Source: Bacteroidales bacterium (GTDB taxonomy: Bacteria > Bacteroidota > Bacteroidia > Bacteroidales > PWNQ01). Taken from it: a stretch of DNA of 64,000 bases. Shown here one piece after another: positions 4,438-37,571 of this stretch (its first letter is position 1; each line of letters begins with the position of its first letter). Position numbers and translations under genes: made by a program. The stretch spans positions 279-64,278 of the forward strand of contig JAIPAE010000001.1 in assembly GCA_021740245.1 (NCBI GenBank), given 5' to 3'. Below the pieces are notes generated by a model. It was not told the DNA's origin and did not search any database. It was given only the letters and a program-made list of their open reading frames with translations.

Positions 4438-5157
4438 TTACAAATCCTTTAAATCTTCAGGAGAATCTATTCCAATCGTTTCCTTGTCAGTAATATCAAC
4501 TATAATTCTATAACCATAATCAAGCCACCGCAATTGTTCAAGGCTTTCTGCCTGTTCGAGCCAAGAAACGGGTAACTGAACCAGCTTGTTTAATACATCT
4601 GTCCTGTACCCATAAATACCTATATGTTTATAATGGATGGTTTTTTTTGAATCTTTATCTAAGGTTTTTCGCAAATAAGGAATTCCAAAGCGGGAAAAAT
4701 ACAACGCTTCTTTCTTTTCGTTGATGATAACTTTTACTATATCGGGATTATCGATATCTTTATTACGATCAATTATTTTAGCAAGGGAAGCAATATCTGC
4801 ATTTTTTTCAAGCAACCCAGCAACGGATTTTATATGATCGTGATGAATGAAAGGTTCATCGCCCTGTATGTTAATAATTGCATCAAACGATTCATTCATC
4901 AATTCCAGAGCAGCAGCACATCTTTCCGTACCTGAGTTTAAGTTATGAGACGTTAACACACATTTCCCTCCGGAATTCTCTACAACTTTCTGAATTCGTT
5001 CATCATCCGTAGCAACTAATACCTGATTCAGTATGTTTGAAGATTTCACATTTTCAAGCGTATGCAAAATCATAGGTTTCCCCCGGATTTCTGCCAAAGG
5101 TTTTCCCGGAAATCTGGTTGAATTGTATCGTGCTGGTATGATGCCTGCTATTTTCAT
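4438..5157 (-). CDS. kdsB: 3-deoxy-manno-octulosonate cytidylyltransferase (CMP-KDO synthetase)
   Basis: 239 aa. N-terminus is IIPARYNSTRFPGKPL, and the NIQGDEP motif is present. Confidence 0.9.
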   Translation of the reverse strand: MKIAGIIPARYNSTRFPGKPLAEIRGKPMILHTLENVKSSNILNQVLVATDDERIQKVVENSGGKCVLTSHNLNSGTERCAAALELMNESFDAIINIQGDEPFIHHDHIKSVAGLLEKNADIASLAKIIDRNKDIDNPDIVKVIINEKKEALYFSRFGIPYLRKTLDKDSKKTIHYKHIGIYGYRTDVLNKLVQLPVSWLEQAESLEQLRWLDYGYRIIVDITDKETIGIDSPEDLKDL

Positions 5158-6650: not shown

Positions 6651-8158
6651 AATCCGGCAATGGATTTGATTTCATCAACGTAATTACGATTATTGGATAA
6701 CCGGGGGACCTTATTCTGCCCTCCCAGCTTACCACGCATTTTCATCCATTTGTAGAATATTCCGTCATCGAGAGGCTGGATAATAGGTGGTTGTAAAAGT
6801 ATATCATTATAGCGTTTTGCTTCATAATCGGAATTGATAGATTTTAAGGCATTATCAAGTGTATCCTTAAAATAGTCACAGTTTTCGGGTTTTTTCTCAA
6901 ATTCAATAAGCCATTCGTGCGCAGCTTTTTGGTTATCTCCCAGATAAACCGGCGCTGCTGTATATTCATTAATAATGGCACCGCTTTTACGACAGGCTAT
7001 ATCTAAAGCATTTTCAGCATTTTCCACGATAAGCTCTTCACCAAAAGCATTGATAAAATGTTTGGTTCTGCCTGTTATTTGTATACGGTATGGATTTTTT
7101 GAAGTAAACCGGACAGTATCACCAATAAGATATCGCCACAAACCGGCATTGGTTGTGATTATCAAAGCATAGTTAACTCCTGTTTCCACCTGATCGAGTG
7201 TCAGTGCTTTAGGATTTTCTTTATCCAGTTCGGACATAGGCAGGAACTCGTAATAAATGCCGTAATCCAGCATCAATAATAACTCATCAGATTCTTTTTG
7301 ATCCTGAATACCAAAATAGCCTTCAGAAGCATTATAATTTTCCACATAGTGAAGATTTTCCGGGACAATTTTTTCAAATTGATCCCGGTATGGAACAAAG
7401 TTCACACCACCGTGAAACAGTGCTTCAAAGTTGGGCCAGACCTCCCCGATATTGGATTTTCCGGTCTTGTCAAGCACCCGCTGAAGCAATAGCAAACCCC
7501 AGGAAGGCACACCGGCCAGGTTCGTTACATTTTCTTTAATAGTAATCTCAGCCATGCGTTCAATTTTTTCTTCCCACTTGTCCATTAATGCAACTTCCAT
7601 GTTGGGTGTCCGGCTAAATTCAGCCCAGAATGGCAGATTTTGAATAATAATAGCTGATACATCTCCATAAAAAGACATATTATCATATTCATTGATATAA
7701 TGACTGCCGCCCAGGCCCAAAGCTTTTCCATCAAATAACCTGGTATCCGGGTAATTTGTGCAATAAAATGAAAGCAAATCCTTACCTCCTCTGAAATGAG
7801 TTTCTTCTATAGCTTCCGTACTAACTGGAATGAACTTGCTCTTTCCTGCTGTAGTACCGGAAGATTTGGCAAACCAACGTATTTCTGTGTTCCATAATAT
7901 ATTTTGTTCTCCTTTGCGAATACGGTCGATGTATGGCTTGAGATCATCGTAAGTGCTTATGGGAACACGTTCCTGGAATTGATCACGGTTACGGATAGTA
8001 GAATAGTCGTATTTCCTTCCCCATTCAGTGTAACGGGCTTCTTTTATTAACTGTTGAAACCATTCTTCCTGCACATCATGCGGATAGCGAACAAAAAGTT
8101 CAATCTGATGCATCCGCTTTTTCATAAACCAGGAAATTAAAGAATTGAATATGGGCAT
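6647..8158 (-). CDS. GH3 auxin-responsive-promoter family protein (adenylate-forming enzyme superfamily)
   Basis: 503 aa. The motif FAKSSGTTAGKSKFIP and the overall length and organisation are typical of bacterial GH3 proteins. Confidence 0.85.
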   Translation of the reverse strand: MPIFNSLISWFMKKRMHQIELFVRYPHDVQEEWFQQLIKEARYTEWGRKYDYSTIRNRDQFQERVPISTYDDLKPYIDRIRKGEQNILWNTEIRWFAKSSGTTAGKSKFIPVSTEAIEETHFRGGKDLLSFYCTNYPDTRLFDGKALGLGGSHYINEYDNMSFYGDVSAIIIQNLPFWAEFSRTPNMEVALMDKWEEKIERMAEITIKENVTNLAGVPSWGLLLLQRVLDKTGKSNIGEVWPNFEALFHGGVNFVPYRDQFEKIVPENLHYVENYNASEGYFGIQDQKESDELLLMLDYGIYYEFLPMSELDKENPKALTLDQVETGVNYALIITTNAGLWRYLIGDTVRFTSKNPYRIQITGRTKHFINAFGEELIVENAENALDIACRKSGAIINEYTAAPVYLGDNQKAAHEWLIEFEKKPENCDYFKDTLDNALKSINSDYEAKRYNDILLQPPIIQPLDDGIFYKWMKMRGKLGGQNKVPRLSNNRNYVDEIKSIAGL

Positions 8159-13036: not shown

Positions 13037-14261
13037 ATCCGTGAAATGCAGCCATTAACAAATCTATATCTTTATATGGAAGATTAAAATAGTCACTGAT
13101 ATATTTATTAGTGATAACCCCATTATAAATATATGTACCATTTCTGAGACCTTTGTTTTTTCGCAGCATATTTTGAATACCGCCTTCTTCAGCAATATTA
13201 AGCATCATAGGGGCAAAATAATTACTGAGAGCATGTGATGCTGTATTTGGAACCTTTGATGCTATATTTGGAACCCCATAATGAATCAGTCCATGCTTGA
13301 TAAATATCGGGTCTGCATGTGAAGTGATGCGTGAGGTTTCAAAACATCCTCCCTGATCAATGCTGATATCAATAATCACTGAGCCTTTTTGCATTCCCTG
13401 CAACATTTCTTCTGTCACAATCACAGGTGAGTGGTTATTTTGTGTGTGCATGGCTCCAATTACGACATCGGCTTCTTCCAATATTTCCTTCAGGTTATTA
13501 TTTTGAATAATAGACGTATAAACCTTTGTATTCAGCAGGTGCTGGATACGCCTAAGCTTACTGATTGTGTGATCAAATATCTTGACAGAAGCTCCCTGAG
13601 CAATTGCTGCCCGGGAAGCTGCCTCCCCTACATTACCGGCACCCAGGATAACAACTTCTACCGGAGGAATACCGGGAAAGCCACCTAACATTTTGCCCTT
13701 TCCAATATCCGGATTACTAAGATATTCGCTGGCAACCAGCATAGCCGTGTTTCCAGCTATTTCACTTATTGACATTCGTATTGGATACACATCGTTTTCA
13801 TCTTTAAGATGCTCAAATGATACAGCCGTGACTTTTTTCGGCAACATTTGCTTGAAATATTCTGATGTTTGGGCTGTAAGATGCAGTGCTGATATTATCG
13901 TTTGCCGCTCCTTAAAAAGCTCTATATCACTTTCTACTGGTGGTGCAATTTTCAAAATAATATCTGCCTGATAAACTTCTTTGCGTGTAGCTACAATATA
14001 AGCTCCGGCTTCACTGTATTCCGAATCACTGAAGTTGGCCGATGTTCCGGCATCTTTTTCTATAATTACCTGATGACCGTTCTCGGTGAGTAACTCAACT
14101 GCTGAGGGAATTAATGCTATTCGCTTTTCCTGATATGTGTTTTCGCGGGGCAAGCCTATGATAAGCTTGTCTTTTTTCTTCTCTACTTCAAGCATCTCTT
14201 CCTGGGGAAGAAGTTTGCCTTGTTGTCCATAAGAAAATATTTTCTTACTGCCGGTACTCAT
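13035..14261 (-). CDS. Alanine dehydrogenase / NAD(P) transhydrogenase alpha-like dehydrogenase
   Basis: 408 aa with Rossmann motif VVILGAGNVGEAA and an AlaDH/PNT N-terminal domain (GLPRENTYQEKRIALIP). Confidence 0.8.
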   Translation of the reverse strand: MSTGSKKIFSYGQQGKLLPQEEMLEVEKKKDKLIIGLPRENTYQEKRIALIPSAVELLTENGHQVIIEKDAGTSANFSDSEYSEAGAYIVATRKEVYQADIILKIAPPVESDIELFKERQTIISALHLTAQTSEYFKQMLPKKVTAVSFEHLKDENDVYPIRMSISEIAGNTAMLVASEYLSNPDIGKGKMLGGFPGIPPVEVVILGAGNVGEAASRAAIAQGASVKIFDHTISKLRRIQHLLNTKVYTSIIQNNNLKEILEEADVVIGAMHTQNNHSPVIVTEEMLQGMQKGSVIIDISIDQGGCFETSRITSHADPIFIKHGLIHYGVPNIASKVPNTASHALSNYFAPMMLNIAEEGGIQNMLRKNKGLRNGTYIYNGVITNKYISDYFNLPYKDIDLLMAAFHG

Positions 14262-14707
14262 ATGTGCTGTTTTGACCGGATTGAATCAGTTCTTTGATAA
14301 CTTATCAATCGTTGTTTATTTCCTGTTATTTCAATGCTTAAATATACGAAATTTTCCGGTAAAAGTTCAGCAATTTGTTCAGGCCATTCTATAAAACAAT
14401 AGTTACCCGAGAAAAAATAATCTTCATACCCGATATCAAAAGCTTCTTCAATAGTCTCCATACGGTAAAAATCAAAATGATAAATATTCCCGAATTCTTC
14501 TGAATAATATACATTGATCAAAGAAAACGTAGGTGAACTGGGCTCTTCCAAAATATTCAATGCTGAGCAAAATGATTTTATAAAAGTAGTTTTGCCCGCT
14601 CCCATTTTACCTTGAACAGCAAATATCCTTTGATTTGGATATTCTTCAAGAATTTCTTTTGCAGCTTTGTCCAGATCCAAAGGAGAAAATACTTCTATCT
14701 TTTTCAT
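14258..14707 (-). CDS. tsaE: tRNA threonylcarbamoyladenosine biosynthesis ATPase TsaE
   Basis: 149 aa with P-loop VQGKMGAGKTTFIK and an HFDFYR motif. The 4-nt ATGA overlap with ald suggests coupling. Its ATG lies inside the repeat junction motif. Confidence 0.85.
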   Translation of the reverse strand: MKKIEVFSPLDLDKAAKEILEEYPNQRIFAVQGKMGAGKTTFIKSFCSALNILEEPSSPTFSLINVYYSEEFGNIYHFDFYRMETIEEAFDIGYEDYFFSGNYCFIEWPEQIAELLPENFVYLSIEITGNKQRLISYQRTDSIRSKQHI

Positions 14708-14813
14708 CTGTTTATAATTTTGATTTTAGCGGTCAGATGGAACTCACGATGAATTTTAATCATTCTCGTGTGTGTATTTTAGAATGCTAAAATTCATGTT
14801 CGTTTCATCTGTT
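14703..14813 (-). repeat. Intergenic repeat, type B unit (111 bp, identical to 58210-58320)
   Basis: My position-by-position comparison shows identity with 58210-58320. It contains a 78-nt imperfect palindrome (14734-14811) and the junction 20-mer at 14703-14722. Confidence 0.9.
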
Positions 14814-21093: not shown

Positions 21094-21319
21094 GGAGTAA
21101 TTCCTATTTGAAACAGAAATATTCTTTTATCCATTTTTTGTTTCAAACAAGCTTTTTTATCTTTACGAAAGCAAAAATCTAACTTGTATTATTCATGCAT
21201 TAAGTTTAGGTCAGATGCAAGGCGTCGAAAGTCATAGACATAGTAATCTGTTTCAAAATTTTTTCCGACTCTTTGGCAGGACAGATGGACTGAAATTAAT
21301 GCAATCGTAAAAAATAAAA

Positions 21320-21532
21320 CAGATGAAACATCCATGATCCGCCTAAGGCAGAACACACACGAGAATGATTAAATGGTGTAATGAGTGATGCGATGATGCG
21401 AAAGGGCGAACGAAGCGACTAAAGCGACTTAAGCGAACGAAGAGGCGAAGAGACTGAGAGACTGAGAGAAACAACGAACAAGCACAGAACACCGAACAAC
21501 GAACACCGAGCAATATTATAAACAGATGAAAC
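21320..21532 (+). repeat. Intergenic repeat, type A unit (copy 1 of a tandem pair)
   Basis: It is bounded by CAGATGAAAC at 21320 and 21523. It aligns to the reverse complement of 58311-58530 with a few substitutions and 9-10 nt indels. Confidence 0.85.
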
Positions 21533-21684
21533 ATTCATGATCCGCCTAAGGCGGAACACACACGAGAATGATTAAATGGCGTAATGAGTAATGTGATGAT
21601 GTGATGATGCGAGAGGGCGAACTGAGCGAACTAAGCGATTTAGAGAAAAAGCGAACAACGAACAAAATTATAAACAGATGAAAA
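21523..21684 (+). repeat. Intergenic repeat, type A unit (copy 2, shorter core)
   Basis: It has the same 5' block as copy 1 (CAGATGAAACATTCATGATCCGCCTAAGGCGGAACACACACGAGAATGATTAAATGG). It ends in the exact junction 20-mer 21663-21682, which contains the ATG at 21678. Confidence 0.85.
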
Positions 21685-37414: not shown

Positions 37415-37571
37415 AATAAATGAACCAGTCAAATATCCGCCGGTAGGCGAAAACACACACGGGTATAATAATAAAGGAACACATAAATAGTGTGTGCCGG
37501 ATATTTAACTTATCATGGCGAACTCCTGCTTACAGCAGGGAGCAATGAAATCAAAATTATAAACGGATGAA
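37415..37571 (+). repeat. Degenerate member of the intergenic repeat family
   Basis: It shares ATCCGCC-loop-GGCGAAAACACACACGGG with type A. It ends in the junction 20-mer with one mismatch (37552-37571, CAAAATTATAAACGGATGAA). Confidence 0.65.

Follow-up and report, generated by a model that had tools for sequence, protein, structure and literature searches.

Two gene starts and the repeat units around them

In a 64,000-nucleotide (nt) stretch of a Bacteroidales metagenome-assembled genome (MAG) from NCBI, referred to here as the window, two genes begin within the same 20-mer, CAAAATTATAAACAGATGAA. One is a serine hydrolase gene of the beta-lactamase family (PF00144; 21678..22826, + strand, 382 amino acids) and the other is tsaE (14258..14707, − strand, 149 amino acids); NCBI names their products beta-lactamase family protein and TsaE. 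The 20-mer has four exact matches in the window, at 14703-14722(−), 21663-21682(+), 58210-58229(−) and 58311-58330(−), and two more with one mismatch, at 21511-21530(+) and 37552-37571(+), whereas shuffled sequence leads one to expect 0.06 matches rather than six. It is the 3′ module of a larger repeat unit of about 60-220 nt, which has ATGAA at either boundary and whose relation to gene starts is the subject of this report.

Six units, named A to F, lie in the window. All of them begin with ATGAA(A/C)C and finish with CAGATGAA, and for this reason adjacent units have one ATGAA in common. Unit A (14703..14808, − strand, 106 nt), upstream of tsaE, is canonical: it runs from a 5′ ATGAAAC to the 3′ CAGATGAA and holds an internal “anti-start”, TTCCATCTG (14734..14742, − strand), complementary both to CAGATGAA at the gene start and to the 5′ copy. 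Upstream of the hydrolase gene lies unit C (21526..21682, + strand, 157 nt), composed of a 5′ module (ATGAAACATTCATGA..ACACACACGAGAATGATTAAA), a low-complexity, T-poor tail and the 3′ module (21663..21682, + strand), whose ATG at 21678-21680 starts the gene. Unit C is in tandem with unit B (21323..21530, + strand, 208 nt), a unit of the same subtype, the ATGAA at 21526-21530 being common to both. A second tandem consists of the B-type unit D (58311..58527, − strand, 217 nt) and the canonical unit E (58210..58315, − strand), which ends on a six-codon frame with the next same-strand gene 160 nt downstream. Unit F (37420..37571, + strand, 152 nt) is divergent, with ATGAACC at its start and CGGATGAA at its end; it is opposed in direction to both neighbouring genes and no gene starts at its end. 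Over 111 nt, unit E matches unit A without a single difference (100%), and unit D matches unit B at 91% over 150 nt. B, C and D together make up a derived subtype that lacks the anti-start and has low-complexity, T-poor tails (T fraction 0.12-0.18).

The start codons of tsaE and the hydrolase gene are native

A preliminary description of this DNA had assigned the start of both genes to the ATG of the 20-mer. This assignment was borne out: in the hydrolase open reading frame (ORF), the ATG at 21678-21680 is the earliest start to follow a stop, the ATG at 14707-14705(−) is the first start of the tsaE ORF, and the same Met opens the orthologues (MKKRGY, MKTIEV, MKHIEV). The added remark that neither gene has an in-frame alternative was slightly overstated, since a TTG occurs at codon 10 of tsaE and at codon 11 of the hydrolase gene, although the ATG does come first. 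The ATG at 58214-58210(−) opens, as described, a frame of six codons (ATG AAT ATA TTT ATT TGG TGA).

From this last site it had been deduced that the ATG belongs to the repeat and not to the genes. Repeat-free orthologues contradict this, because they already start with ATGAA at the same codon. In a syntenic relative (L001; 84% and 81% protein identity), the hydrolase gene has no repeat upstream; its intergenic region of 98 nt ends ...gcctt ATGAAAAAAAGAGG, coding MKKRG, the empty site reads ...gccttATGAAAAAAAGAGG, and the native start is accordingly ATGAAAAAA. Ahead of tsaE the same relative carries a different, F-like unit that finishes in the same 20-mer. The empty tsaE site was found in a more distant relative (L243), where it reads TAA, tcaggcaccc and then ATGAAGCAC (MKHIEV), the TAA being the stop of the upstream PglZ response-regulator gene, the syntenic neighbour. 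A further relative, also without the repeat, has ATGCAAAGC at tsaE. Filled sites, for their part, read TAA, 12-13 nt, ATGAA, unit, ATGAA, gene.

Since the repeat-free orthologues already start with ATGAA, the two genes had such a start before the repeat came; and since these orthologues lack the 20-mer, the 20-mer is not a native leader. The preliminary description had itself named the presence of the same 20 nt in repeat-free orthologues as the finding that would reduce the motif to a conserved leader, and they do not carry it. Judged from this comparison of filled and empty sites, the start codon is native and what the element contributes is the leader, not the codon. ATGAA is, on the same grounds, a 5-nt direct repeat common to target and element that bounds the insert, either as a true target-site duplication or as an identity between the target and the end of the element.

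Units are fused to unrelated gene starts in many Bacteroidota

We scanned one genome per GTDB species with the exact 19-mer, which matched at least 117 stretches, and metagenomes with a probe that leaves out the motif, AATGATTAT-N-AGTTCCATCTGAC. Both scans were seeded by exact strings, genes were called by ORF length alone, many of the loci are MAGs or metagenome contigs, and the figures given here and below are for the matches listed. Carriers of the 19-mer include Bacteroidales, Flavobacteriaceae, Lentimicrobiaceae, Balneolales and Ignavibacteriales, together with Marinilabiliales-type genera (Marinifilum, Labilibaculum, Prolixibacteraceae, Carboxylicivirga) and Cytophagales (Lunatibacter, Lunatimonas, Algoriphagus, Cyclobacterium).

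The preliminary description had proposed a count of the copies that end on start codons compared with chance. ORFs of at least 60 amino acids were opened by 84 of the 122 motif ATGs; 34 opened short frames (about 15 of these being the next tandem unit) and 4 lay at the end of the locus. By comparison, only 23% of the other ATGAA in the same loci opened long ORFs, and crude gene calls put gene starts at 18% of the non-element ATGAA sites outside gene interiors, with ATGAA starting 37% of genes. The N-termini behind the motif look genuine, with signal peptides, response regulators (MKLLIIEDE), dehydrogenases (MKKNIIVTGASRGIG), P-II and dUTPase among them. As for the metagenomes, (A/C)AATTATAAACAGATGAA lay 8-12 nt downstream of the probe in 94 of 113 units, with at most 3 mismatches. 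A looser pattern recovered the motif in 89 metagenome units, which led to long ORFs (56), to the next unit (10), to short frames (18) or to the contig end (5). The claim of a repeat that stops precisely at start codons and furnishes the sequence directly upstream is supported well outside the window, for about 70-80% of terminal copies at more than 200 loci in many Bacteroidota lineages. The genes downstream are unrelated to each other: 63 proteins contained 107 Pfam families, of which the commonest, SusD, was found in 4.

A Methanobacteriaceae MAG (L018) and most of the matching IMG/VR contigs (L248-L265) have lone exact 18- or 19-mers with no upstream unit, in AT-rich or coding sequence; such chance matches give the noise level of the string scans.

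The unit contains two covarying helices

The canonical unit measures about 90-135 nt. It opens with ATGAA(A/C)(C/T)-NNN-CCATG, a hairpin with an ACACACA loop and (G)AATGATTAT; its middle part reads CATGG-NNN-GTTCCATCTGAC, also given as CATGG-NNN-G(T/A)TTCCATCTGAC; and an A-rich spacer of 8-12 nt then leads to AAAATTATAAACAG-ATGAA. Identity between copies runs from ATGAA to ATGAA(A), while the 5′ flank of the first unit, which is native leader, is variable and A-rich.

In helix P1 the 5′ end pairs with the GTT..CATGG side (...CATGG-NNN-GTT). Compensatory changes were seen at position 7 (C-G 34, U-A 10), position 10 (G-C 18, C-G 8) and position 12 (A-U 21, C-G 17), and the helix also contains a conserved A.C mismatch and frequent tandem G.A/A.G mismatches. 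Cells altered on both sides numbered 82 in P1 against 42 ± 5 in shuffles, none of 500 shuffles reaching that value, nor did any of 500 when P1 and P4 were taken together. In helix P4 the internal anti-start CCATCTG is paired with CAGATG at the start, and the central pair of the helix covaries in units unconstrained by either probe (C:G 12, G:C 6, A:T 2, as read from the unit list), with p = 0.0015 in a Fisher test on the C/G classes. ViennaRNA predictions placed the AUG of the gene within P4 in 71% of 76 units.

With a covariance model based exclusively on other genomes, units A and E were both recovered, scoring 72.8 bits (E = 4.5e-11). Over the window the model found no canonical unit beyond these two; units B, C, D and F scored about 14 bits because they have no anti-start. 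RNAalifold returned no structure on a plain MAFFT alignment, and the helices emerged only with anchor-based registers and a cleaner alignment. On the sense strand, tandem G.A/A.G mismatches occupy 98 cells against 10 cells for C.T/T.C, an excess which hints that the sense strand is the folded one. Rfam 15 gave no match in the whole window at gathering thresholds, and E-value scans of units B/C, unit A and locus L069 gave only sub-threshold chance matches (C/D-box, microRNA, PYLIS-like). Likeness to hammerhead ribozymes, K-turns and integron attC sites was considered by eye and dropped, as the core positions do not fit.

Copies bear signs of mobility

Copies from one genome resemble each other more than they do copies from other genomes, and some are fully identical at unrelated loci. 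The cultured species Lunatibacter salilacus carries two three-unit arrays (L006, − strand, ~6700-7010; L051, − strand, ~4440-4750) in which the gene-proximal 98-nt unit is identical whereas the downstream genes and the distal units differ; identity stops right after ATGAAA. We also observed that the youngest-looking unit of the D-E array, unit E, identical to A, is the gene-proximal one. The arrangement is a hint that an array gains its new units at the 3′ end. Different unit types occur together in tandem arrays, and subfamilies are lineage-specific; such mixing fits repeated insertion at a regenerated ATGAA better than tandem duplication.

Arrays B-C and D-E are both missing from the nearest relative. 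At the D-E locus the exact empty site was not recoverable, the flanks having diverged by about 220 nt: positions 58075-58209 and 58531-58630 (about 220 nt in total) have no counterpart in the 132-nt intergenic region of the relative, so that more than the two units differs at this locus. Copies that lie off gene starts or are opposed to their neighbours look decayed. This applies to unit F and possibly to an extra sequence of about 144 nt (21179..21322), which separates unit B from the conserved part of the lpxA-hydrolase intergenic region and has no counterpart in the relative. On its minus strand we noticed by eye weak, degenerate pieces resembling the 3′ module, TCCATCTGTCC..AAACAGATTA and GCATCTGACC..ATGAATAA, and the segment may be a graveyard of inverted unit copies. 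As far as sequence comparison goes, the identical copies at unrelated loci, the presence/absence differences and the mixed arrays all point to mobility. Phage carriage was considered as a route of spread and set aside, true units being present in only 2 of 19 viral matches.

Proposed integration at ATGAA and competing explanations

The explanation that we favour, and consider probable, is that these units are small, non-autonomous, structured repeats, dispersed across Bacteroidota, that integrate at ATGAA, usually at a Met-Lys or Met-Asn gene start, and persist there. A unit would dock on ATGAA by site-specific integration, leaving the native leader and one ATGAA upstream, while a second ATGAA would be regenerated downstream, joined to the intact coding sequence. 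The gene would keep its own start codon and acquire a highly conserved leader, invariant and A/U-rich. The internal TTC(C)AT(CTG), complementary to the ATGAA at the target and at both ends, may be the recognition principle, and by analogy it may be likened to the pairing between guide and cleavage site in IS200/IS605 elements. Once in place, the unit would presumably be transcribed as part of the mRNA leader, where P4 could sequester the start codon and the 5′ ATGAAAC copy compete for the anti-start, so that the unit would modulate initiation; copies on starts would be kept preferentially, as harmless or useful. The unit boundaries, the native ATGAA at empty sites, the fusion to unrelated starts and the covariation of P1 and P4 are directly supported by the data above. 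The same holds for the identical copies at different loci of one genome and for the presence/absence differences between relatives.

Several observations weigh against this explanation. The share of copies on starts (75-80%) is about four times the passive expectation of about 18% for random ATGAA insertion minus disruptive copies, and hence additional targeting or selection must be assumed. Orthologous copies are kept between species (L029/L065, L037/L061, L190/L191), and the 19-mer is identical across orders and classes, which is odd for selfish MITEs (miniature inverted-repeat transposable elements), whose clusters are mostly genus-specific (PMC11602168); this identity and the orthologous persistence suggest a function at the level of the host. 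The predicted unpaired probability of the gene AUG has a median of 0.04, which would be costly for a purely harmless insert, and the counts of G.U and A.C (11 versus 9) do not tell which strand folds. The units have no terminal inverted repeats. No transposase or integrase was found with units in the ~1.7 Mb of loci examined, and a regular-expression search of the same loci for a gene lying between a 5′ module and a 3′ module, a noisy pattern, gave no convincing autonomous copy or enzyme. Finally, mobility is read from comparison of sequences and not from a transposition event directly observed.

An alternative is that the unit would be above all an RNA leader regulating in cis (as a thermosensor, by binding a protein or small RNA, or as a translational switch between decoy and anti-start), recruited by the host upstream of many genes, with spread secondary and a trans-acting partner conserving the sequence. 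The covariation of P1 and P4, the pairing of the start codon to the anti-start predicted in 71% of units, the identity of the 19-mer across classes, the retention of orthologous copies and the sense-strand bias of tandem G.A/A.G mismatches (98 against 10 C.T/T.C cells) all speak for such a leader. It is nevertheless doubtful as the primary explanation. Riboswitch-type leaders precede functionally coherent genes, while the 107 Pfam families in 63 downstream proteins reveal no common function; copies are more alike within than between genomes, to the point of full identity at unrelated loci; units E and F lie off starts or antisense to neighbours; units B, C and D and the 84-nt units of Flavobacteriaceae are placed on starts without having an anti-start; and no Rfam family matches.

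The remaining explanations are much less probable. A cassette that brings along a promoter, a translation initiation region and an ATG to drive the downstream gene, a reading proposed for REP2 of Neisseria and IR-A/B of Borrelia, would account for the placement, the fusion of ATG to ORF, the internal stem-loops and the missing terminal inverted repeats; yet the Bacteroidota −7 box TAnnTTTG occurs on the sense strand of only 1 of 104 units and of none of the six in the window, many copies lie inside operons (PglZ-tsaE and susC-susD-type pairs, for example), and the native leader, with TAnnTTTG at about twice the frequency of random sequence (16% versus 7%), is kept in the 5′ flank. We regard this cassette as very unlikely. 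Little probability likewise attaches to translational coupling, in which ribosomes would start at the old ATG, traverse the unit as an upstream ORF, stop near the new ATG and reinitiate. Within the 3′ module there are indeed a TAA at −7 and a TGA that overlaps the ATG (ATGA), a 42-codon frame ending on that TGA occurs in some subfamilies, and the upstream frame is stopped before the gene in 72 of 74 units; but unit length modulo 3 is uniform (26/25/23) and the upstream frames stop early in 33 cases, internally in 28 and on the overlapping TGA in only 8. A conserved upstream ORF was rejected, as neither frame nor length is conserved. Even less likely is an antisense transcription unit fired from the complementary strand of the 20-mer, which reads TTCATCTGTTTATAATTTTG and contains TAATTTTG. 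The perfect antisense TAnnTTTG box noted in the preliminary description is real and occupies a fixed position in 5 of the 6 window units. It requires a C ahead of AAAATTA, which elsewhere is seen in just 20% of copies from genomes and 7% of those from metagenomes, and by eye no window copy has a −33 TTTG at the right spacing, so the box is not a feature of the repeat family; it is an incidental local variant, and the conserved helices and boxes are independent of it. We give practically no weight to a native conserved leader or a chance likeness of gene starts. ATGAA starts and A-rich leaders are indeed common in Bacteroidota, but this reading is already refuted by the shuffles (0.06 expected matches against six) and by the repeat-free orthologues, which lack the 20-mer, and identity continues upstream for some 100 nt before breaking off at ATGAA(A).

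Integration at ATGAA, the explanation we prefer, can be taken one step further, to a phylum-wide mobile module of translational control. Here the anti-start TTCCATCTG would find ATGAA starts, insertion would be harmless, and one shared post-transcriptional switch would then stand over unrelated genes: P4 would hold the start codon, the 5′ decoy would compete, and a conserved factor would read the invariant 19-nt leader, with dozens to hundreds of unrelated genes controlled per genome. We put this forward tentatively, as a possibility with the odds against it. If true, it would amount to a transposable regulon acting at translation initiation, in a phylum without Shine-Dalgarno-led initiation.

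Relation to known repeat families

Searches of the literature by sequence string and by keyword found no paper with these sequences or describing the repeat family. The closest precedent is REP2 (CREN) of Neisseria, together with the similar IR-A/IR-B sequences of Borrelia plasmids, compared here by their published description. REP2 elements measure 120-150 nt, have internal stem-loops and no terminal inverted repeats, lie directly upstream of ORFs and form part of the mRNA 5′ leader, and they hold a promoter, a ribosome-binding (Shine-Dalgarno) site and an ATG fused to unrelated genes (PMC3184786). The Bacteroidota units are like REP2 in the fusion of their ATG to unrelated ORFs, the internal stem-loops and the lack of inverted termini. 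They differ in host phylum, in the near absence of a sense-strand promoter box (TAnnTTTG, the only promoter type sought) and in their range, which covers many Bacteroidota orders plus Balneolales and Ignavibacteriales, whereas REP2 belongs to one genus with about 25 copies. Going by the description of REP2 in that review, the bounding ATGAA repeat, the covarying anti-start helix and the mixed tandem arrays also set the units apart.

Bacteroidota, for their part, are known not to rely on Shine-Dalgarno pairing. The bcr1 repeats of the Bacillus cereus group, of about 100-400 nt, have traits of mobile elements with no known transposase; their mobility has been tied to the end pentanucleotide TTTAT, and a mechanism like site-specific recombination has been suggested (PMC6542083). 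The link of mobility to a pentanucleotide is common to both families, but the pentanucleotide and the host clade are different, and bcr1 is not reported to be fused to starts. Classical MITEs (Correia, ERIC, RUP) are similarly small, non-autonomous, intergenic, often co-transcribed in 5′ leaders, able to fold as RNA and variable between strains. What sets them apart is that they carry terminal inverted repeats and duplicate a short target, for instance TA, whereas inverted termini and a generic target are both missing from our units. When the consensus 5′ end, ATGAA-ACGNCCATGA, was compared with the 3′ end in reverse complement, CTGTTTATAATTT, no terminal complementarity appeared, and the inverted repeats of the unit are internal only (P1 and P4). 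A flanking duplication, as in MITEs, is present: ATGAA bounds every unit and is single in repeat-free orthologues.

The palindrome-associated elements derived from IS200/IS605 (single-strand HUH transposition) are comparable, by analogy only, in lacking inverted termini, in a fixed target of 4-5 nt resembled by the end of the element, in an internal sequence complementary to the cleavage sites and in a strand-specific fold. Like them, every unit lies directly 3′ of a fixed short target, ATGAA. Distinct left and right subterminal hairpins were not found, as P1 connects the left end with a position some 35 nt short of the right end, which itself forms part of P4, and no TnpA/TnpB gene was found near units, the proteins of the window and of the loci not having been scanned for PF01797. 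Start-codon-sequestering RNAs (RNA thermometers, riboswitch platforms) resemble the units in the pairing of the AUG region with an internal anti-start, from which a competing upstream copy could free it; they differ in not being interspersed repeats, in having no phylum-wide invariant leader and in being tied to functionally coherent genes. The repeat family belongs to a rare known kind, that of start-fused repeats, with features of its own.

If integration at ATGAA is right, a sizeable share of Bacteroidota genes got their leader and initiation context from a mobile unit and not from their own history, and the 5′ ATGAA copy would be a decoy start for gene-start annotation. For translation without Shine-Dalgarno-led initiation, the invariant 19-nt leader beside a paired start codon would be a directly testable case. 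In terms of mobile DNA, the repeats would be an instance of a non-autonomous element for which start codons serve as a “safe harbour” and whose choice of target is possibly guide-based. Synthetic biology in Bacteroidota would find in it a portable initiation cassette already tried by nature, and the little-studied Neisseria REP2 would gain a far larger comparable system for the origin and spread of start-fused repeats.

Variant and reduced units

The tails of units B, C and D (window positions 21390-21510 and 58330-58460) are built of the short tandem repeats AAGCGACTA, AGAGACTG and CACCGAA, and a Flavobacteriaceae contig (L011) has a comparable GTGATGA-rich tail ahead of a 19-mer. Weak Rfam matches to archaeal C/D-box sRNAs at 21564-21627 (13-19 bits, far under threshold) were treated as chance, since the tails hold GTGATGA and CTGA strings.

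Reduced forms were also found. The Flavobacteriaceae MAG S141_30 (L014, L032, L070) has arrays of 84-nt tandem units consisting of the 5′ and 3′ modules without the CCATCTG anti-start, and the last unit of its arrays still finishes on a gene start. In the solo forms of L083 and L115, about 28 nt long in all, (AT)GAAACAT(T), also given as ATGAAACAT, is fused straight to the 19-mer on a gene start; these forms look like internal deletions of full units. Two viral contigs carry units. One of them, L247, has a canonical unit; the other, the IMG/VR contig L250, has a minimal 58-nt unit about 60 nt upstream of the matched 18-mer, which reads ATGAAAC-GCAT-GTTCCATCTGAC-N-AAATTATAAACAGATGAA. In L250 the TGA of the upstream ORF overlaps the 5′ ATG, so that the insert split a native stop-start overlap.

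Other variants are longer. Several lineages (L027, L030, L064, L065 and L096) have a GC-rich mini-hairpin (CTCCCG-loop-CGGGAC) inserted at one position in the 3′ strand of P1, with GAGTTC on one side and (AGG)CTATCTGAC on the other; the orthologous insertions L029 and L065 differ by this mini-hairpin. The long units L053, L081 and L105 contain other GC hairpins, for example GCGCCCTGAAGGGGC.

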